DNA of 39,490 nt from a virus. The notes under the pieces were generated by a model. It saw only the letters and a list, made by a program, of their open reading frames with translations, had not been told where the DNA came from and searched no databases. Each line of letters starts with the position of its first letter. The stretch's first letter is position 1. The stretch lies in the UHGV virus genome UHGV-0154499; one strand, 5' to 3'. Positions 28,433-39,440 of the stretch are shown in pieces. Position numbers and translations under genes: made by a program.

Positions 28433-29326
28433 TCACGCATGAGTTACCCCCCGCATGCTGTCGACAAGACCTTGCGCAATTGTGATGATTTCGCTGGTGG
28501 CCGTTCGTTCCAGCCATAGTTGATTGATATTGGCTTTCAGCTTGTTCTGCTGTGGTTCCTCCAGCATGTCAGCCCCTTCCACCTGGTTAAACACAATATC
28601 CACCTCAAGTGGCCAGATGCGTGATTCAACTTCTGGCAATGACAGCGGCACAGCAGCGGGCATTTCACGTGGTTGCACTGCTGGTGGCTGAACCTTCGCG
28701 GCGACAAACGTGGCCAGAGCCATAGAAGCACGCCCTTTTGCCTCCAGTTCTGTGCGGTTGATGTAGCTGAACCGCTCACCACGCCATGACTTATCGAATA
28801 CAGCTATGGCACCGGCAAAAAACGCGCTGGTGGGCTTCTGTTTTTCGTCAGCAGGTACAAACCACACAGGCAGATCGAACCCAATGCGCCCGCGAATGAA
28901 TACAATGTGATCGGCATCTTCCGGCCACCACGTTTCACTCGGCGCGGCTTTTATCAGGAATACATAGCGACCGCCCTTTTCGCGCTGGGCTGCTGCGTAC
29001 TTCATGATGTGCGTCATACCAGTGATCGCCTGTTTCTCGTGGTACTGCGAACGGCTATACGGTGGGTTGCCATAACCTGCACCACCTAGTTCTGCCAGAC
29101 GTTCAGACCAATCCTGGGTCAGCGCGTTATCTTCGGCGGTGTACCATGCCGGGCATTTCGCGTTGTCGTCGTCAGCAAACAAGTCCAGAACTAATGGGCC
29201 AAATAACGCGTTGATCCCCCAGAAAAGCAGATCAGGTGTCCGCCACTGATCGCCAACTTCTTTCAATTCGTGGGCTGATTGTCTACGTAGTGCCGCCAAC
29301 GCCTGGCAATATTTGTTTAACGTCAT
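28433..29326 (-). CDS. Phage DNA N6-adenine methyltransferase (Dam-like, orphan)
   Basis: NPPY catalytic motif (GYGNPPYSRS) and a phage Dam-family N-terminal region; no adjacent restriction endonuclease gene. Confidence 0.8.
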   Translation of the reverse strand: MTLNKYCQALAALRRQSAHELKEVGDQWRTPDLLFWGINALFGPLVLDLFADDDNAKCPAWYTAEDNALTQDWSERLAELGGAGYGNPPYSRSQYHEKQAITGMTHIMKYAAAQREKGGRYVFLIKAAPSETWWPEDADHIVFIRGRIGFDLPVWFVPADEKQKPTSAFFAGAIAVFDKSWRGERFSYINRTELEAKGRASMALATFVAAKVQPPAVQPREMPAAVPLSLPEVESRIWPLEVDIVFNQVEGADMLEEPQQNKLKANINQLWLERTATSEIITIAQGLVDSMRGVTHA

Positions 29327-30180
29327 CCTCTGAACCCCGCAGGAATCGTTGCATCAACCGGACCAAAAGCCATCACATCGCGCTTTTTCTCCCCCCAGTC
29401 AGCGCGCTTAGGCCGTCCCTTCTGATCCCAGCGGGTAGCGCTTTGCAGATAGCTCTCGAATTTCTTCGGGCCGAACAGCGTTTCCGGTCGCATGTACTGG
29501 TACTGCTCGTCGTTCTCGTGCCAGTGCTCATGCTTCAGGTCAATAACCAGTTGCAGGTCTGCAACGCTGTATCCCTCACGCAGTCGGGCGCGGATGTTTT
29601 CCAGGGATGTTTTGGATTTCTGATACCGGGATCCGCTGATCTGGTTCAAATGGGTCAGAACCAAAATCGCCTGGTCAGTAATCACAACTTCAGGGTCTGG
29701 TTGCGCCGCAACCGGACAAGAGGGTTTTGAAGTTACTTGTGGATCTTGTGTTGATTTTACTGACGGATCCCCGCCAGATTCTGACGGGTCAAAACCGCCG
29801 TTTTTGCCAGATTTCGACGGGTCAGATTTTGAGGCGTCAAATTTTGATGCGTCAGATTTTGACGCGTCAGAATCTGACAGTTGAGAAAATGCAGCAGTCT
29901 GAAGTTTCGCCACATTCAGGCGGTACACGTTAGAAGCATTACGATTACCATTACGGCGCTGTGTACGCGTCAGCCAGCCATCTTTTTCAAGCTTAGCGAT
30001 TGCTGTTCTAATGGTGCTCGGACCCGCGCCAAGCTGGCGAGCAATAGTTTCAATGGACGGCCAGCACACGCCCTCATCGCTGCTGAAATCAGCAAGGCGA
30101 GCCATGATCGCGACACTAGACAACTTCATGCCCGACGCCGCGCAACCATCCCATACGTAGCCGGTTAATTTAGTGCTCAT
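29323..30180 (-). CDS. Replication initiator protein, O-like (wHTH N-terminus, iterons inside the gene)
   Basis: N-terminal wHTH replication-protein pattern (SIETIARQLGAGPSTIRTAIAKLEKDGWL); the internal acidic repeat SDSDASKSDASKFDASKSD is the translated iteron array. Confidence 0.8.
   Translation of the reverse strand: MSTKLTGYVWDGCAASGMKLSSVAIMARLADFSSDEGVCWPSIETIARQLGAGPSTIRTAIAKLEKDGWLTRTQRRNGNRNASNVYRLNVAKLQTAAFSQLSDSDASKSDASKFDASKSDPSKSGKNGGFDPSESGGDPSVKSTQDPQVTSKPSCPVAAQPDPEVVITDQAILVLTHLNQISGSRYQKSKTSLENIRARLREGYSVADLQLVIDLKHEHWHENDEQYQYMRPETLFGPKKFESYLQSATRWDQKGRPKRADWGEKKRDVMAFGPVDATIPAGFRG
29761..29880. repeat. Replication-origin iterons (5-6 direct repeats of about 15 bp) inside the O-like gene
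   Basis: Plus-strand units gacgggtcagatttt / gaggcgtcaaatttt / gatgcgtcagatttt / gacgcgtcagaatct, with degenerate copies upstream. Confidence 0.75.
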
Positions 30181-30189
30181 GATCGTCCG

Positions 30190-30516
30190 TTATCTCCCTG
30201 AACTTTTGCCTGAAATGCTCAAGTGGGCTGAAGCATTCGTGCGGGTAGCCATCACGCAGATAGATAACGCGCTGTGTTTCTGGCTCCCAGCGGATAACAC
30301 GGACTGGCACTCCGCGGTGGTCTTTGAACCTTCGGTTAAGTTCGCGCACAGGCGTTTTGCCCTCCGGTAGTAGACCCCCACAATTACAGAGGCCTGACTG
30401 TGGTTACATGACACCCAGCGATTTGATACTTTGCATTCATACCGAAACAGCGGAAGACCCGGAACCGGGATCATTCGCAGTTGCGGTAAGTGAGGATTTA
30501 CGATTAAATTGCTCAT
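30190..30516 (-). CDS. Hypothetical small protein between the cII-like and O-like genes
   Basis: Internal ATG 6 nt after the cII-like stop, preceded by GGAGAAAT; ends 10 nt before the O-like start; translation is partly low-complexity, so coding status is uncertain. Confidence 0.35.
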   Translation of the reverse strand: MSNLIVNPHLPQLRMIPVPGLPLFRYECKVSNRWVSCNHSQASVIVGVYYRRAKRLCANLTEGSKTTAECQSVLSAGSQKHSALSICVMATRTNASAHLSISGKSSGR

Positions 30517-30521
30517 GCGGA

Positions 30522-31073
30522 TTATTTCTCCATACTCGAAGAGTTGTTCGCCAAGGCGCCCGGAGCTGCACACTCGCGGGCGTCACTCATTTCTGGAAGG
30601 CAATAAACTCGAGAAATCAGGTTCAGAAACGTCATAAGCGTTACCCGGAACTGGTAGGCGATTTCGTTCAGACTGTCCCACTCACCTTTATCAACCACGC
30701 CATCATCGATGTATCGACGGTATGCGTTGACCAGATCCCCGAGCCTGCCCACCAGCTCAGCCAGCTTTAAGCCAATCTCTTCGTTCTCTGTTTCTGGTGC
30801 CGCGCCCGGGATATGGATCCCGTTATCTGTTTGACGAGAAAACGCGTCAGCTATGTAGCTAACACCGGCTGCTTTCTGTAAAACCATCGCCCACCCCATA
30901 GGGAAGATCTGATCACCATCTACGCGGAGGCGGTTAAACAGTGCGTTCTCTGTTACCCCCAACCATTCCGCCGCTTCGGCGTAGCCACCAGGCAGATCGG
31001 TAATCGTCTTTTTAATCGCTACCACCAGCCAGATTGGCTGACGTTCAACTTTCCAAATAGGTTCGTTACCCAC
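30522..31073 (-). CDS. cII-like phage regulatory protein (CP76-type)
   Basis: Position directly after cro; HTH region (GGYAEAAEWLGVTENALFNRL); GTG start with an AAGGGG RBS. Confidence 0.65.
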   Translation of the reverse strand: MGNEPIWKVERQPIWLVVAIKKTITDLPGGYAEAAEWLGVTENALFNRLRVDGDQIFPMGWAMVLQKAAGVSYIADAFSRQTDNGIHIPGAAPETENEEIGLKLAELVGRLGDLVNAYRRYIDDGVVDKGEWDSLNEIAYQFRVTLMTFLNLISRVYCLPEMSDARECAAPGALANNSSSMEK

Positions 31074-31101
31074 GGTTAACCCCTTAATTCTGTGGTTTTA
31101 A

Positions 31102-31299
31102 TCACGCAGCCGAATGGCTACGCTTTTCATAAAGTGATTGGTCAACTTTCAAATCACCTTTCGTCAGCGCTTGGATCTCAAATGCTCGTCCCTTTGGAAT
31201 AATTTCATCCCAGCCCGACACGGACGCATGAGAGATATTCAACGCCTTAGCGGTTTTCCCTACGCCACCGAAGTAAGAAATAACGTCATTCTTTTTCAT
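31102..31299 (-). CDS. cro: Cro-like HTH repressor
   Basis: 65 aa; HTH (KTAKALNISHASVSGW); divergent from cI across the operator region. Confidence 0.8.
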   Translation of the reverse strand: MKKNDVISYFGGVGKTAKALNISHASVSGWDEIIPKGRAFEIQALTKGDLKVDQSLYEKRSHSAA

Positions 31300-31398
31300 T
31301 TTTCCCTCTGGAGTTAAGTAATGCAGTGCACTGATAGTAGGATATCTTACATTAAATGGTCAAGCACTCCTACATCAGATAATGGTAGGATTGCCTAC
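31300..31398. promoter_or_regulatory. OR-like operator/promoter region between cro and cI (PR/PRM)
   Basis: Operator copies TAGTAGGATATCTTACAT (about 31335-31352) and TGGTAGGATTGCCTACAT (about 31383-31400), plus a third inverted element CCTACATCAGATAATGGTAGG. Confidence 0.65.
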
Positions 31399-32055
31399 AT
31401 GAAAATGAATGATCGAATCCGAAGCAGACGAAAAGAGCTAAAGATGACGCAATCTGTCCTGGCAAAGCTTGTCGGGGTTAATCGCGTCACCATCACCGGT
31501 TGGGAATCCGGTGACTACAAACCGGGTGGTGAAAACCTCCAGGCGCTTGCGGCTGCACTAGAAAAGACGCCGCAGTGGTTACTGGAAGGAAAGGATGATG
31601 GAAGTCAGCAACCACCAACCATGGACCCGGAGCAAAGATTCGGAATTAGGTCAGTTCCCGTTCTCACATGGGTACAGGCCGGGGAATGGACGGCCAATAG
31701 CGGAACGATCACAGAGCGGGACATTCATGACTGGGTCTATACTTCGGCTGCCGTTTCTGAAAGCGCATTTGCACTCATTGTTCGCGGCGACTCGATGACC
31801 AACCCTACAGGTGCACCAAGTATCCCCGAGGGCTCTATTGTCGTTGTAGAGCCTGATTTTGGTGATGCCAGTCAAGCTAATGGAAAAATTGTTATTGCAC
31901 AGCTTCTGGGAAGTGATGAAGCCACTATTAAAAAGTTCGTCATTGATGGGCCGCTGAAATACCTAGTACCTCTCAACCCCAATTACAGGATTTTAGAAGT
32001 CAATGGCAACTGCCGATTGGTAGGGTTAGTAAGACAAGTAATAATGGATTTATAA
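31399..32055 (+). CDS. cI: CI-like repressor (HTH plus LexA/S24 peptidase-like C-terminal domain)
   Basis: N-terminal HTH (LKMTQSVLAKLVGVNRVTITGWESG) and C-terminal S24 domain with the Ser region (IVRGDSMTNP) and the Lys-containing region (VIAQLLGSDEATIKKF); start set at MKMND. Confidence 0.88.
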   Translation: MKMNDRIRSRRKELKMTQSVLAKLVGVNRVTITGWESGDYKPGGENLQALAAALEKTPQWLLEGKDDGSQQPPTMDPEQRFGIRSVPVLTWVQAGEWTANSGTITERDIHDWVYTSAAVSESAFALIVRGDSMTNPTGAPSIPEGSIVVVEPDFGDASQANGKIVIAQLLGSDEATIKKFVIDGPLKYLVPLNPNYRILEVNGNCRLVGLVRQVIMDL

Positions 32056-32056
32056 G

Positions 32057-32082
32057 AAAACCGGGAATACCCGGTTTTTTTT
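32057..32082 (+). terminator. Intrinsic terminator directly after cI
   Basis: AAAACCGGG-aatac-CCGGTTTTTTTT starting 2 nt after the cI stop. Confidence 0.8.
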
Positions 32083-32091
32083 CGCCCCTCA

Positions 32092-32146
32092 ATGTAAGTT
32101 ATCCAACATTTCCCCTTGACCTCAAATAGTAAGTTATCCTACATTA
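32092..32146 (+). promoter_or_regulatory. OL-like operators with candidate PL promoter
   Basis: Two copies of the same 18-bp operator family as OR (ATGTAAGTTATCCAACAT and TAGTAAGTTATCCTACAT) flanking TTGACC, with a weak -10 (TACATT) inside the second operator. Confidence 0.6.
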
Positions 32147-32249
32147 TTCACATCAACAGCGAACAGGCAGGACGCCCATGAAGTAGCCGCCCGGGGCATA
32201 TGAAGGCCAGGATGATTCGCTAACACATAAATTCTCAAGGGGCTTCAGG

Positions 32250-32492
32250 ATGAAAGAGAACGAACCACATATTTATGCCGGTAGCATGAGCAACGAAGAG
32301 CTTTATCAGTGGCTGTGTAAGAAGGTTGAAGCAATGGCGCATCTTCGTCAGTTACATATGGATAAAGCCTCCTGTGTGCGAAGGCTTGAAGAAGTGGATT
32401 CAATGATCACTGAAGCTACCCTTGAATCTCAATTAGAAATTTCTCGGACAACTCAGGGTCCCATTCAGCGTCCAAATAATCAGGGAAGTTAA
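32250..32492 (+). CDS. Hypothetical 80-aa protein, first ORF downstream of the candidate PL
   Basis: ATG with moderate RBS; helical-looking composition; overlaps the 3' end of the convergent minus-strand gene, so one of the two may be spurious. Confidence 0.3.
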   Translation: MKENEPHIYAGSMSNEELYQWLCKKVEAMAHLRQLHMDKASCVRRLEEVDSMITEATLESQLEISRTTQGPIQRPNNQGS

Positions 32493-32862
32493 CTGGGTAA
32501 TTTGAGTGAGTAATGCGCGAGAGATATTCACTTGCTGGCTCCGGAAGAGCAGAGAACTGGATTTCATCGTGCAGGGCAAGCAGCGCATCAGTAAGTGTTA
32601 AATCTCGAATTACTGACAGCGGCCATTTGTATTTGAGAAGCAACTTGTGGTGAAGAGCCTGTTTTCCGTTAAGTCCATTGAGTTGATTCCCGTACTTTTT
32701 ACGGTGCTCATAGAGAATGATGTCTAGAGCACAGATTAGCACGGCGCGGTTTGTGACACAGGAAACTTCAGAGCTATCAACATAGCCACTGATTTGGATA
32801 CCGCGAAGTTGAGCAATATTGCTTTTGATCTGCGTAAAGAGGTGAGCGATTCCATTAATCAT
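32416..32862 (-). CDS. Hypothetical 148-aa protein encoded convergently inside the early-left region
   Basis: Internal ATG (MINGIAHLFTQ...) preceded by AAGGAA at 6 nt; GC lower than backbone; the upstream in-frame part of the track ORF (GTG start, Cys/Trp/Arg-rich) looks non-coding. Confidence 0.4.
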   Translation of the reverse strand: MINGIAHLFTQIKSNIAQLRGIQISGYVDSSEVSCVTNRAVLICALDIILYEHRKKYGNQLNGLNGKQALHHKLLLKYKWPLSVIRDLTLTDALLALHDEIQFSALPEPASEYLSRITHSNYPVNFPDYLDAEWDPELSEKFLIEIQG

Positions 32863-33446
32863 TTTGATTCCTTCGGGGTTGTAGGGACTTTGAAGGATAC
32901 CACCACGCCTGATGTGGTTAAAAGCAGGCCAAAGCAATAACAAGTAACTCCCTGTTCTGGCGGCCCGGTGTTTTCCCGTGTATTTCCGGTAACCGCCAGC
33001 CTTTTTCAGGGAACAACGACGAGAGCATTGACGAGCAAGGCATAAGTGCTGGTTCGATTCCAGACAGTCCCATTCAGTTGGGAGGGTTGGGCAGGGAAAA
33101 GGTTCGTTCGATTCGGACACCGGCAGTGTTCTCTTCGTTGTGGTGAATTGCAGTCCATCGAGACAACCAGAAGATAAGCATCTGGCGCCACAACCTTATT
33201 GCTGTGTGTAGTCTTGGCGGTACCAGGGTCTTCAACCTTATACAAGGGGGACGAAGATAATGTTCTACCTCGTTACCGCCCTTTTTACGCAACAGAAAAG
33301 GGCATCACCGGGCGACGGGCTCATAACCCAATCCACCCGGGCAAAAAGAAAGCGGTCTCTGCAAGCCGCCGACCAATGCAGGTGCCCTTCTCTGTTGTGT
33401 ATGGAGAAAGTTCGGCGGTTGCAGCCGCCTTAACGAGGGTAAAACC

Positions 33447-33818
33447 ATGAGTAATGACCGCATGACCGTAGTGCCAGATTTTCTTGGCGAACTGGATGCC
33501 GGCGTGTTCATGAACAAAATCGCGGCAGCACTTAATACCACCGCGCTTGGCGTTCTAAACAACGGCAACAAAGGAAAAGTAGTCCTCACCTTTGATTTTG
33601 AGCGCATGGGTAATTCCGTTGAAGAGAAGCGCGTCAAGATCAAACACAAGCTGAACTACAGCACCCCGACACCGCGTGGTAAAGCCTCCGAGGAGGACAC
33701 AACCGAAACCCCGATGTGGGTCAACAAAGGCGGGAAGCTCACCATCCTGCAGGAAGATCAGGGGCAACTGTTCGGGATCACTGGCGCGGTGGATGGAAAG
33801 CTTAAAGCGGCTCAGTGA
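33447..33818 (+). CDS. Hypothetical early protein (possibly YfdP-like, as in E. coli prophage CPS-53)
   Basis: 123 aa; first clear gene of the plus-strand early-left operon; family assignment is from memory. Confidence 0.6.
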   Translation: MSNDRMTVVPDFLGELDAGVFMNKIAAALNTTALGVLNNGNKGKVVLTFDFERMGNSVEEKRVKIKHKLNYSTPTPRGKASEEDTTETPMWVNKGGKLTILQEDQGQLFGITGAVDGKLKAAQ

Positions 33819-33874
33819 TCCGCAACAACAAACTCACTGATACCACTTCGATCATCAGTTAATAAGGAATTTTT

Positions 33875-34702
33875 ATGTCTCAGCTAGACAGCGGTACCTT
33901 CAAGCAGGTCAAAGACCTGGTTCTTTCCGGTTATCACCTGAATGATATTCATGGCCTGGCTTGCCCGACCGCATTACTGCCAGAGGGTACTGGCATTGAA
34001 AGCCTCGAGCGCTTTTCTCTGGAGCGTTTCCGCTTTCGTGGTGCAATGACCACAACCAGTATTGATGACTTCGCACGTTATTCTAAAGGTTACGCCAGCG
34101 ACAGTGAGCCAGCTCGTTGCTTTATTGACGCTGACAACATGACCGCTCGTTCAGTGTTCAACATCGGCACCCTGGATAATCCCGGTCACGCCGATAACGT
34201 TGCTTCAATCACCCTGAAGAAAACCGCCCCGTTCCGCGCGCTACTGCAGATCGATGGTCAACGCCTGAAGCAAAAGCAAATCGCCGAATGGCTGGAAGAC
34301 TGGAGCGATTACCTTCTGGCGTTTGATGCTGATGGCAATACGATGCAGATTTCCCAGGCTGCTCAGGCTGTGCGTCGTATCACTATTCAGCAAGCAACAC
34401 AGCAAGACCATGAAACTGGTGATTTCGCTGGTAAAAAATCGCTGATGCAAAGCGTTGAAGCAAGCAGCAAAGACGTAATGCCTGTGGCGTTCGAGTTCAA
34501 ATGTGTGCCGTATGAAGGTCTGGGCGAACGCCGCTTTAGCTTGCGTAACAGCCTGCTGACCAGCGATGAACCCTGCTTTGTTCTGCGCATCGTCCAACTT
34601 GAAGCCCAGGAAGAAGAGATCGCCAACGAATTCCGCGATTTGCTGATCAGCAAGTTCGAAGGTGAATCAGTGGAAACTTTCATCGGTAACTTTAAAGCCT
34701 AA
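33875..34702 (+). CDS. DUF2303-family protein (possibly YfdQ-like)
   Basis: 275 aa; N-terminus MSQLDSGTFKQVKDLVLSGYHLNDIHGLACPTALLPEGT resembles recalled YfdQ. Confidence 0.65.
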   Translation: MSQLDSGTFKQVKDLVLSGYHLNDIHGLACPTALLPEGTGIESLERFSLERFRFRGAMTTTSIDDFARYSKGYASDSEPARCFIDADNMTARSVFNIGTLDNPGHADNVASITLKKTAPFRALLQIDGQRLKQKQIAEWLEDWSDYLLAFDADGNTMQISQAAQAVRRITIQQATQQDHETGDFAGKKSLMQSVEASSKDVMPVAFEFKCVPYEGLGERRFSLRNSLLTSDEPCFVLRIVQLEAQEEEIANEFRDLLISKFEGESVETFIGNFKA

Positions 34703-34713
34703 TTGCTCTGCAT

Positions 34714-34745
34714 TAAATCCCCGGCGCCGCGGGGATTTATTGAAG
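34714..34745 (+). terminator. Intergenic hairpin with weak U-run inside the early-left operon (possible attenuator)
   Basis: AAATCCCCG-gcgc-CGGGGATTT followed by ATTGAA; perfect 9-bp stem. Confidence 0.35.
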
Positions 34746-34830
34746 CGTAATTCCATTAATTATCGCCACCCGGCGAGGGATTCTTGCAACCAAAATCTGC
34801 GCGGTGCAGCGCGCCAATATGGAGAAAACC

Positions 34831-35370
34831 ATGAGCTACATTCAGACATTATCCGGTAAAAAATTTAACTACCCGACCGCCACAATCGACGATATTGATA
34901 TCGAGGATATCGCGACTGCTCTTTCCAACATCTGTCGATTCGCTGGGCATCTTCCAGAGTTCTACAGCGTGGCCCAGCACTCTGTGCTTGTAAGCCAGAT
35001 TGTGCCGCCAGAGTTCGCCTTTGAAGCGCTGATGCACGACGCTGCGGAGGCATATTGCCAGGATATTCCTGACCCGCTCAAAGCCCTGTTACCTGACTAC
35101 CAACGCATGGAAACTTATGTTGATGGTCTTATCCGCTTTAAATTCGGTATCTCTCTCGAACAAGCTGCTGTCGTGAAATATGCCGATCTAACCATGTTAG
35201 CCACCGAGCGCCGTGATCTGGAAATCGATGACGGTTCGAAGTGGGAAATTCTCGAAGGTATTCCCTGCTCTGATCTCGTTCAGGTTATCCCCCTCCGTCC
35301 TGGTCAAGCCTATGGCCTGTTCATGAATCGCTTTAACGAACTGGTGGAGCTGCGCCAATGCGCCGCATGA
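34831..35370 (+). CDS. HD-domain phosphohydrolase (YfbR/YfdR-like 5'-deoxynucleotidase family)
   Basis: H...HD metal-binding motif (SVAQHSVLVSQ...ALMHDAAEAY); start set at MSYIQ with a GGAGAAAA RBS. Confidence 0.7.
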   Translation: MSYIQTLSGKKFNYPTATIDDIDIEDIATALSNICRFAGHLPEFYSVAQHSVLVSQIVPPEFAFEALMHDAAEAYCQDIPDPLKALLPDYQRMETYVDGLIRFKFGISLEQAAVVKYADLTMLATERRDLEIDDGSKWEILEGIPCSDLVQVIPLRPGQAYGLFMNRFNELVELRQCAA

Positions 35371-38126: not shown

Positions 38127-39440
38127 ATGGATAAAGTCACATATCCAACAGGCGTCGAAAACCACGGTGGCACATTACGCATCTGGTTTAATTTTAAAGG
38201 TAAGCGTGTCAGGGAAAGTCTCGGTGTCCCTGACACCGCTAAGAACAGGAAGATAGCCGGGGAACTGCGGACATCAGTATGTTTTGCCATCCGCACAGGA
38301 ACCTTTGATTATGCAACTCAGTTTCCTGACTCCCCTAACCTCAAGGCTTTTGGTGTAAGTAAAAAAGACATTACAGTGAAAGAACTTGAAGAAAAATGGC
38401 TGGATCTGAAACGGATGGAAATCTGCGCGAACGCATTCAATCGCTATGAGTCTGTCGCAAGGAATATGGTGCCGAGGATCGGAGGTAATCGCCTGGTGTC
38501 AGCAGTAACCAAAGAGGAATTGCTGTATCTCAGGAAAGATTTGCTAACTGGTTACCAGAATCCGACGAAAAACAAAGCTCCGGCAAAAGGGCGAAGCGTT
38601 GTTACTGTGAACTATTACATGACGACAATGGCCGGAATGTTTCAGTTTGCTGCAGATCACGGTTACTTAGAGGTGAACCCATTCGAGGGAATTAAACCTC
38701 TGAAAAAAGCCAGGGCAGAACCAGATCCGCTGTCTCGTGATGAATTTATTCGCCTGATAGATGCATGCCGGCATCAGCAGACGAAAAACCTGTGGTCATT
38801 AGCAGTGTACACAGGAATGCGTCACGGGGAACTGGTCTCCCTGGCCTGGGAAGATATCGACCTGAAGGCGGGAACAATTACCGTCAGGCGTAATTATACG
38901 AAACTTGGTGAGTTCACTCTACCGAAAACCGAGGCAAGCACAGATCGAGTGGTGCATCTTATCCAGCCCGCAATCAGCATCCTGAAAAATCAGGCTGAGA
39001 TCACAAGGCTGGGCAGGCAACATCACATTGAAGTTCAGTTACGTGAGTACGGCCGTTCGGTGAACCATGAGTGTACATTCGTCTTTAACCCGCATGTGGT
39101 CAGACGCAGTAAGCAGGTCGGATTTATCTACCGGGTCGATTCAGTAGGCGACTCATGGGAAGCTGCACTTAAGCGCGCGGGGATCAGACACAGAAAGGCG
39201 TACCAGTCACGACATACCTATGCGTGCTGGTCATTATCTGCTGGTGCAAATCCGAGTTTTATTGCCAGTCAGATGGGACATGCGAGCGCGCAGATGGTGT
39301 TCAATGTTTACGGTGCATGGATGGCTGACAGCAGCGCAGAGCAAATAGCAATGCTCAATCAGAAGCTGGCAGATTTTGCCCCATTGATGCCCCATAGCCA
39401 CGAGAGCAGTACGGGAGGATTATTAAAATCAGTAAGTTAA
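38127..39440 (+). CDS. int: Tyrosine site-specific integrase with N-terminal arm-binding domain
   Basis: N-terminal GTLRIWFNFKGKRVRESLG arm-binding domain; C-terminal catalytic region with the R...H..R...Y signature (GMRHGEL, HTYACW, VFNVYGAW). Confidence 0.9.
   Translation: MDKVTYPTGVENHGGTLRIWFNFKGKRVRESLGVPDTAKNRKIAGELRTSVCFAIRTGTFDYATQFPDSPNLKAFGVSKKDITVKELEEKWLDLKRMEICANAFNRYESVARNMVPRIGGNRLVSAVTKEELLYLRKDLLTGYQNPTKNKAPAKGRSVVTVNYYMTTMAGMFQFAADHGYLEVNPFEGIKPLKKARAEPDPLSRDEFIRLIDACRHQQTKNLWSLAVYTGMRHGELVSLAWEDIDLKAGTITVRRNYTKLGEFTLPKTEASTDRVVHLIQPAISILKNQAEITRLGRQHHIEVQLREYGRSVNHECTFVFNPHVVRRSKQVGFIYRVDSVGDSWEAALKRAGIRHRKAYQSRHTYACWSLSAGANPSFIASQMGHASAQMVFNVYGAWMADSSAEQIAMLNQKLADFAPLMPHSHESSTGGLLKSVS

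Follow-up and report, generated by a model that had tools for sequence, protein, structure and literature searches.

Introduction

The closest described counterparts of the locus analysed here are the regions behind the promoter PL of lambdoid phages. The locus covers positions 32,056 to 33,446 of the virus genome UHGV-0154499, where the whole stretch of 39,490 nucleotides (nt) is referred to as the window, and it contains, directly after the cI repressor gene, a leader RNA of PL, a pair of convergent genes and two further structured RNAs. The window is a lambdoid prophage, with structural genes 78-85% identical to those of mEp237, N15 and phi80. In lambda, N and its nutL site have the same place in the operon as this leader and the same need to pass downstream signals; the window differs in having neither an arginine-rich first gene nor a boxA, and some of its relatives carry an rrn-type boxA after the leader. 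Polymerase-utilisation (put) RNAs give processive antitermination that needs no phage protein and depends on the zinc-binding domain of the RNA polymerase β' subunit. HK022, a lambdoid phage without an N antiterminator, likewise has a structured RNA of about 70 nt, put, at the start of the PL transcript, and its putL copy lies directly after PL (PMC9378689).

Two other systems are comparable in gene order. The cohE(ymfK)-ymfJ/ymfI region of the element e14 in Escherichia coli K-12 has the same succession of a repressor, a member of the leader family, a small PL-sense gene (ymfJ) and a convergent overlapping antisense gene (ymfI), although e14 has no counterpart of the T-arm RNA described below, and a comparison of YmfJ and YmfI with the window proteins orf80 and ECs1072 gave no homology. 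The antisense gene of the window, a member of the ECs1072 family, resembles lambda rexAB and P22 sieB/esc in its position beside cI, lower G+C content, apparent independence of PL and sporadic distribution. It differs from them in showing no sequence or fold relationship and in lying antisense to PL with a convergent, PL-driven partner.

The comparison of the window with its relatives indicates that, in the stretch from cI to the first long early gene (start at 33447), about 320 nt consist of three conserved structured RNAs on the PL strand. These are previously unannotated phage leader RNAs and tRNA mimics. The stretch as a whole is read as the promoter-proximal leader of the PL operon in a lambdoid prophage without N, assembled from exchangeable modules; together with the functions proposed below, this composite reading is considered evenly balanced between being right and being wrong.

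Results and Discussion

Layout of the locus

The elements on which the analysis centres are as follows.

32116-32121 (-35) and 32140-32145 (-10), plus strand (rightward): promoter PL, TTGACC-18-TACATT
32152-32226, plus strand: PL leader RNA, structured core 32159-32220, 97.3 bits with covariance model R2
32250-32492, plus strand: orf80, the first PL-sense gene, 80 amino acids, phrog_1744 (E-value 1.5e-13)
32416-32862, minus strand: ECs1072-family gene, 148 amino acids, antisense to PL, NF033230 and phrog_5286
33012-33142, plus strand: double T-arm RNA, 131 nt, 160.8 bits with covariance model R1
33287-33400, plus strand: 'down' RNA, 114 nt, with a 20-bp closing helix ACGCAACAGAAAAGGGCAUC/GGUGCCCUUCUCUGUUGUGU and three short helices inside

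This layout agrees in large part with an earlier sequence-only reading of the same DNA. The succession of cI, a terminator and two OL-like operators lies where that reading had placed it, and the 80-amino-acid open reading frame (ORF) on the plus strand and the convergent 148-amino-acid gene on the minus strand, of lower G+C content and with a good ribosome-binding site, are present as described. As for the 1.3 kb ahead of the first early gene, the statement that nothing but these two ORFs is present is correct for the ORFs and incorrect for the content, of which the three structured RNAs make up the 320 nt given above. These RNAs on the PL strand, as well as the cassette nature of the gene pair, were missed.

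The absence of rex and of an N-like antiterminator, which had also been claimed, is borne out. The rex genes are absent from the immunity region, and neither orf80 nor the 148-amino-acid ORF has a Pfam or PADLOC match above noise. No N-like arginine-rich protein is evident, where the product of the first PL gene, orf80, is a long helix with few arginines and no arginine-rich N terminus, and no boxA within two mismatches was found near PL in the window.

The PL leader RNA

The leader, about 70 nt long, begins 6-7 nt past the -10 hexamer, which is approximately +1 of PL, and it begins likewise under unrelated PL promoters. The PL promoters of the leader-bearing phages otherwise differ, and each has its own operators. 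In the fold, an outer 5-bp stem encloses an invariant GGC-AGGAC-GCC hairpin and a covarying 5-bp hairpin, and the leader also has a conserved GGAUGA. The outer stem is completely swapped to CCACC/GGUGG in mEp237, and the 5-bp hairpin shows many compensatory variants. As a whole, 96.2% of the cells are paired compared with 22-46% in slid controls, and double changes occur in 9 of the 13 pairs.

The leader is found in SfV, SfII, SfIV, ST64B, mEp237, YeP1, ZF40, phiNP and other phages, always just after cI. Among 5426 complete E. coli genomes, 1844 contain it, with up to four copies each, and it is never annotated. The copy in e14 of K-12 lies between cohE (ymfK) and ymfJ and scores 75.4 bits. 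The first gene behind the leader varies among the phages, and in the relative L018 there is none.

SfII, SfIV and SfV have been reported to lack N, cII and cIII (PMC3851460). Late in the SOS response, e14 shows induction of ymfJ as well as of the distal intE (PMC11002266), which is consistent with read-through from PL across the antisense ymfI, in a data set that does not show one continuous transcript. The leader may stand in for the absent N antiterminator and is the best candidate for this role. Its assignment as a true antiterminator is tentative and falls somewhat short of probable.

Several results weigh against this assignment. For the comparison with HK022, putL and putR were derived from the HK022 genome and the numbering in the cryo-electron microscopy paper (PMC9378689). 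Short motifs, CGAAC(N)GGC and GGAUGA, are common to put and the leader, and only these align; in put, two stem-loops follow each other in tandem, and the leader instead has two hairpins inside an outer stem. A search of the HK022 immunity region with R2 gave no match at E ≤ 5 with filters off, so that the leader is not a detectable homologue of put. A second, putR-like copy behind PR was not found in the window or in six other leader-bearing loci, each phage giving one match. The predicted stability of the window leader is no better than that of shuffled sequences (z-score +1.05), and an A at 32209, which is G in L064 and other close relatives, places a C·A mismatch in the middle of hairpin 2, by which this copy may be weakened. 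Furthermore, in eight relatives, including L059, L067, L075 and L123, a hairpin and a perfect rrn-type boxA, GCTCTTTAACAA, directly follow the leader (1404-1415 in L123), and the window is without them. In those eight relatives, a nut-like site may be present of which the leader is just one part, and the arrangement suggests a combination of the leader with antitermination by Nus factors in some relatives. Homology of the leader with HK022 put was rejected since R2 scores neither putL nor putR, no PR copy exists and the architecture differs; the leader is put-like in position only.

The boxA GCTCTTTAACAA and the hairpin after the leader in the eight relatives would also fit a leader that is not an antiterminator, and instead is a 5' module for the stability or translation of the first PL genes. 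Such a module might protect the 5' end by its structure, be bound by a host or phage protein, or form one half of a nut-like site whose action requires boxA and Nus factors. The resemblance of the invariant GGC-AGGAC-GCC hairpin to a protein-binding boxB-type hairpin, the lack of a second copy for the PR operon and the failed put tests point in this direction. However, the window and most relatives have no boxA, the gene behind the leader differs or is absent (L018), which indicates that the leader is not tied to the translation of one gene, and the leader is carried by phages reported to lack N. A 5' module of this kind is considered rather unlikely.

The double T-arm RNA

Within the double T-arm RNA, the following parts are distinguished.

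33012 to 33142 (outer bounds), plus strand: P1, the closing helix, 19 bp, with compensatory changes
33049-33063, plus strand: T-arm look-alike A, CUGG-UUCGAUU-CCAG
33068-33083, plus strand: hairpin B, variable and strongly covarying
33102-33118, plus strand: T-arm look-alike C, GUUCG-UUCGAUU-CGGAC

Both look-alikes have the G53-C61 closing pair and the UUCRAUU loop that define the T-arm of tRNA, and they are nearly invariant across 32 distinct sequences while the rest of the RNA covaries. The proposed pairing is present in 93.8% of the cells compared with 35-55% in slid controls, with nine compensatory pairs. The minimum free energy (MFE) is −50.9 kcal/mol, corresponding to a z-score of −4.2 on the plus strand and −0.8 on its complement. 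The PL strand is identified as the structured strand by the G·U pairs and this folding energy. The RNA is non-coding, since frameshifting indels of 1 and 4 nt occur inside sequence that is about 90% identical. No second copy was found in the window with R1.

Among otherwise unrelated phages, the T-arm RNA is approximately 82-93% identical. It occurs in 115 other loci, most of which, where the flank is sufficient, have it at this location after cI. In Stx2a_1447 and 1720a-02, it again lies between cI and the first PL gene, and it is also present in Edwardsiella EPP-1, Klebsiella Kp4866-6, Citrobacter phiNP and Salmonella F1055. In loci with enough flank, cI is usually followed by a variable slot, often with the leader in front of it, and then by the T-arm RNA, the 'down' RNA and the first early gene, which is p123+DUF2303 or RdgC. 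The spacing from the T-arm RNA to the 'down' RNA is some 215-300 nt, and the order of these two RNAs and the first gene is fixed regardless of the cI allele or the first gene. In four epsilon15-like phages (including SPN1S and SPN9TCW), the T-arm RNA is not part of any immunity region and is followed directly by a tRNA-Arg(UCU) gene, and in SPN1S and SPN9TCW the cassette that contains them is oriented against the structural genes. Beyond the phages named here, scanning viral contigs for the pattern of this RNA yielded 107 more stretches. Complete E. coli genomes contain the RNA in 78 of 5426 cases. A scan of species-representative genomes with the T-arm pattern gave mostly chance matches, and the model confirmed only those in Edwardsiella, Buttiauxella and Rouxiella.

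A conserved 5' extension of about 190 nt, starting near the promoter, precedes the T-arm core in L001 (2800-3000), L003 (2790-3000) and L008 (2300-2500). Its sequence, ACGGCRUAUGGCACAUG...GGUAGCCGGAAUGUGCAAG..., is common to the epsilon15-like, Stx2a_1447 and Kp4866-6 phages, and in these lineages the full RNA may be about 330 nt long.

The T-arm RNA resembles tRNA in its T-arm hairpins with the UUCRAUU loop and, in some phages, in its location directly upstream of a tRNA as part of the same putative transcript. It differs in that it is not a cloverleaf and has two T-arms, no anticodon arm and no CCA end. One explanation is that it is a trans-acting tRNA mimic, freed from the PL transcript as a decoy or sponge for a host factor, and not merely a processing site. 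The G53-UUCRAUU-C61 signature of both hairpins, which is essentially invariant amid the covarying rest, agrees with this, and RNase P cleavage of the adjoining tRNA-Arg(UCU) would free the RNA in the four epsilon15-like phages. Candidate targets are TruB, TrmA, RNase P, a tRNA-targeting defence nuclease and, in hosts that have it, Ro/Rsr, as with Y RNAs. The long terminal helix combined with a tRNA-like domain recalls the build of bacterial Y RNAs; the T4 species 1 and 2 RNAs and the Y RNA YrlA are presumably comparable as well and serve as leads only. On the other hand, neither ARAGORN nor the Rfam tRNA model recognises the T-arm RNA, only the variable hairpin is found at the position of the anticodon arm, and most of the hosts concerned are not known to have Rsr. 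A trans-acting mimic is regarded as unlikely. ARAGORN found no tRNA anywhere in the window, and Rfam RF00005 gave no match at E ≤ 1.

Several other assignments of the T-arm RNA were rejected. An RNase P RNA, suggested by the strings GAGCAAGGC and GGGCAGGG, gave no model match at E ≤ 10 in the loci with the 330-nt long form. A G-quadruplex in the G-rich strand is excluded by G-tracts that are unconserved in the Kp4866- and F1055-type sequences, and the alternative GGCA-UAAG-UGCU pairing given by RNAalifold, which competes with look-alike A, is broken in the Kp4866- and phiNP-type sequences. A terminator formed by GGACACCGGCAGUGUUC and UCUUCGUUGU was rejected as well, since the stem is not retained in relatives.

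Minus-strand ORFs lie over the T-arm RNA in the window (phrog_36251, 33010-33117), in L006 (2408-2980) and in L007 (2207-2623). The 'hypothetical proteins' F1055_0036 and 118970sal3_00050, together with phrog_36251, are probably spurious ORF calls antisense to this RNA.

The 'down' RNA and the remaining hairpins

In the 'down' RNA, the pairing is present in 93.8% of the cells compared with 36-51% in slid controls, with nine compensatory pairs, and pair 15-112 is split evenly between CG (nine) and GC (nine). The MFE is −50.2 kcal/mol with a z-score of −4.8, and the MFE fold is the proposed fold. The closing helices of the 'down' and T-arm RNAs are alike (...CAAC...AGRGCAU / GUGCYCU...GUUGUG), and a weak R1 match on the 'down' RNA (13.8 bits) is attributed to the resemblance of its closing helix to P1.

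The remainder of the non-coding block has the following elements.

32907-32929, plus strand: P0 hairpin, GCCUG...CAGGC, at the block start and the right cassette junction (comparison with L018)
32949-33012, plus strand: terminator-like G+C-rich hairpin, 64 nt, MFE −26.7 kcal/mol, z-score −2.1, with CCUUUUU at 33000-33006
33414-33429, plus strand: small hairpin, GGCGG..CCGCC, with CGACC..GGTCG and GGCGA..TCGCC in relatives, read by eye
33435-33439, plus strand: Shine-Dalgarno sequence GAGGG before the first early gene (33447)

P0 is conserved in ET5, Kp4866, sal3, SfV and F1055, and its variants in relatives include CCUGG/CCAGG and CCUCG/CGAGG. The terminator-like hairpin is lineage-specific and is inserted between P0 and the T-arm RNA; in F1055-type relatives, P0 abuts P1. 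Parts of the block at 32896-33446 are found in approximately 370 complete E. coli genomes, and about 45 nt separate the end of the conserved non-coding sequence from the first early gene.

Rfam 15 gave no gathering-level match in the whole window, and the three RNAs are absent from that release. At E ≤ 1, the region 30500-35000 gave nothing except one chance snoRNA match, and the long form in L001, L003 and L008 gave nothing on the T-arm RNA. A full-text search with the RNA sequences found no paper in the library that was searched.

The junctions between modules lie exactly at the edges of the conserved blocks, namely after GATTCGC, before CCTGATGTGG and after UGUAUGGAGAAA, as would be expected if the blocks were recombination linkers at module boundaries with no RNA function. 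However, compensatory changes in all three RNAs are far above shuffled and slid controls, the PL strand is singled out by G·U pairs and folding energy, and the T-arm RNA is found outside lambdoid contexts too, beside a tRNA gene. The linker explanation is already disfavoured and is regarded as highly improbable.

The gene pair and its cassette

The 148-amino-acid protein belongs to NCBIfam NF033230 ('ECs1072 family phage-associated protein'), with 171.4 bits against a cut-off of 70. The alignment is full length, where residues 4-143 correspond to profile positions 2-141 of 142. The gene has AAGGA 6 nt upstream of its ATG, and its 3' end overlaps orf80 by 77 nt. All 42 homologues begin with MINGxxHLF, by which a 234-amino-acid, GTG-started extension of the minus-strand ORF was ruled out; the N-terminal phrog_36251 match of this longer reading is the antisense strand of the double T-arm RNA. 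The homologues of orf80 form eight clusters, of which seven are exactly 80 amino acids long and one is 95. The AlphaFold2 prediction for orf80 is a single long helix over residues 15-67 (predicted local distance difference test score 81.6). The ECs1072-family protein has no fold match and no PADLOC match. Remote homology and structure prediction, which the sequence-only reading had named as checks, gave a family for the larger protein and a helix for the smaller, and they gave no Pfam, PADLOC or fold match.

Prophages of Enterobacter hormaechei and Serratia have ECs1072 homologues (about 50% identity) directly after cI and antisense to PL. Their partner ORFs are convergent and overlapping and are 37-38% identical to orf80 (E-values 1e-12 to 1e-14). 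Because this convergent overlapping pair recurs in Enterobacter and Serratia, orf80 and the ECs1072-family gene form one conserved module, and by their sequence conservation among related prophages both ORFs are real, conserved genes. An antisense gene in this slot had been called unusual; this view does not hold, since prophages of Enterobacter and Serratia repeat the arrangement and e14 follows it with genes that are unrelated.

The sequence comparison further indicates that the pair is an inserted, exchangeable cassette of about 690 bp and lower G+C content. The relatives L018 and L072 have a cI that is 96-100% identical and the same operators and leader as the window, but no orf80/ECs1072; about 170 nt of unrelated sequence replace the cassette of about 690 nt. 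Conversely, L056 and L064 have the identical cassette behind a different cI. The swap junctions, from the comparison with L018, are at 32220 and 32910. The G+C content is 0.44-0.455 over 32200-32900 against 0.51-0.56 at 32900-33500, and the early genes show 0.51-0.565 over much of their length. The cassette is present in one of the 5426 complete E. coli genomes. In uninduced O157 Sakai, the list of transcripts with growth-phase-dependent changes includes ECs1072 itself (PMC2241611).

A distant ECs1072-like ORF (29% identity, tblastn) lies antisense in the same slot in L103, 356-790 nt upstream of the T-arm RNA, and a second weak match was noted in L028. The slot may collect diverged members of the ECs1072 family.

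The pair could be a toxin-antitoxin-like or abortive-infection system, where an effector of the lysogen is opposed by an early-lytic neutraliser that would free the phage from its own effector. In P22, Esc counteracts SieB, and the rex genes of lambda and the sieB-type genes of P22 occupy the same position beside the repressor, which favours such a role. The pair is strictly co-conserved and convergent, its 3' overlap being kept at only about 50% and 37% protein identity, and the logic of opposed transcription fits, as does the single long helix of orf80, which is often found in small binding partners. Against these points, there are no PADLOC, Pfam or structural matches, and the antisense gene could instead be a regulator of lysogeny. 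A neutraliser-effector pair, proposed by analysis of the arrangement, is considered doubtful.

Proposed mechanism

Modular organisation, conservation and RNA structures are observed at this locus, and from them we infer the functions of the composite reading as follows. In the lysogen, the ECs1072-family gene would be an accessory gene transcribed leftward from its own promoter, with a role in exclusion or defence that is guessed, and its transcript would end at the bidirectional terminator of cI. Upon induction, PL would fire, and the nascent leader would fold and act in cis on RNA polymerase or on the transcript, which would make elongation resistant to pausing, termination or Rho, by positional analogy with HK022 putL. 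Transcription from PL would pass orf80 and then run head-on over the ECs1072-family gene and silence it, where orf80, as the PL-encoded partner, would also oppose this gene after induction. The leader would thereby let PL cross the antisense gene, the terminator-like hairpin and approximately 1.3 kb of largely untranslated RNA without N.

The two closing helices of about 20 bp would be processing or insulating modules, probably of the RNase III type and possibly assisted by RNase P. A cut at a helix would free the early mRNA from the leader and the cassette and set its 5' end, and the T-arm RNA may persist after release as a stable tRNA mimic. Helices of about 20 bp have the size that is cut by RNase III in phage early operons. 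The R-sites of T7 and the RNase III site of the lambda N leader are similar in this length, in a single internal mismatch and in their location between units of early transcripts; they are simple hairpins, whereas the window helices close elaborate conserved domains, at which cleavage is predicted. RNase III-type processing at the two closing helices is considered somewhat unlikely.

The composite reading also has to be weighed against the following points. RNase III or RNase P processing is proposed from helix length and T-arm mimicry. The outer stem of the terminator-like hairpin takes in its U-tract, so this hairpin may not terminate. No promoter consensus was found upstream of the ECs1072-family gene, where inspection by eye shows only a weak extended -10, TGGTATCCT, and the defence role of the family is a guess from position.

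In a wider form of this proposal, the leader would be a second, far more widespread put-like RNA family that reprograms E. coli RNA polymerase without a phage protein, and the double T-arm RNA would be a new class of tRNA mimic that engages a host factor recognising the T-arm or elbow, as a decoy, sponge or processing guide. The two together would provide all-RNA early control in lambdoid phages without N, which is thought unlikely.

Other features of the window

The repressor end of the immunity region has the following features.

30522-31073, minus strand: cII-like gene
31102-31299, minus strand: P22_Cro-type gene
31399-32055, plus strand: cI repressor gene, HTH_3 (E-value 3e-15) and Peptidase_S24 (E-value 4e-19)
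32054-32083, both directions: bidirectional intrinsic terminator at the cI end, with the inverted repeat AAGAAAACCGGG / CCCGGTTTTTTT at 32054-32081
32094-32110 and 32129-32145, plus strand: OL operators of 17 bp each, two copies of GTAAGTTATCC(A/T)ACATT

The inverted repeat of the terminator is 12 nt long and 92% complementary with a loop of 4 nt, and it starts at the stop codon of cI. An A-tract on its 5' side and a T-tract on its 3' side are those of an intrinsic terminator, and the function is predicted. A simple terminator scanner missed it, presumably as the T-run is absorbed into the stem. Two sites between cro and cI (31337-31353 and 31385-31401) are related to the 17-mers of OL as members of one repeat family. 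The two operators bracket PL, which overlaps the second one.

A 15-bp unit, CAGATTTTGACGCGT, is repeated in 4.3 tandem copies at 29808-29871, inside a 285-amino-acid gene at 29323-30180, and these repeats are probably origin iterons. The gene of ET5 in the corresponding position is annotated as 'conserved phage C-terminal domain-containing protein'. A 437-amino-acid ORF (38127-39440, plus strand) is the most distal of the PL-sense genes, and its position suggests an integrase. In L003 (Stx2a_1447), a C4 antisense RNA (83.6 bits) and isrK (67 bits) are found at 537-738 on the minus strand, on the PR side beside an antirepressor gene; the window has no Rfam match to C4 antisense RNA or isrK.

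Conclusions

The gene pair belongs to a catalogued family in a known kind of slot, and the RNAs are the new part. The orf80/ECs1072 pair is a further accessory cassette of the immunity region that is worth testing for exclusion or defence. The T-arm RNA, with conservation that is very strong for a non-coding sequence and with clear tRNA mimicry, is a good candidate for a new class of functional RNA. In many temperate enterobacterial phages, such as SfII, SfIV, SfV, ST64B and e14, which have no recognisable N, the early operons have terminators and long untranslated leaders to pass. An obvious candidate for this function is the RNA at +1 of PL, whose fold is supported by covariation and whose presence in E. 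coli K-12 makes it open to e14 genetics.

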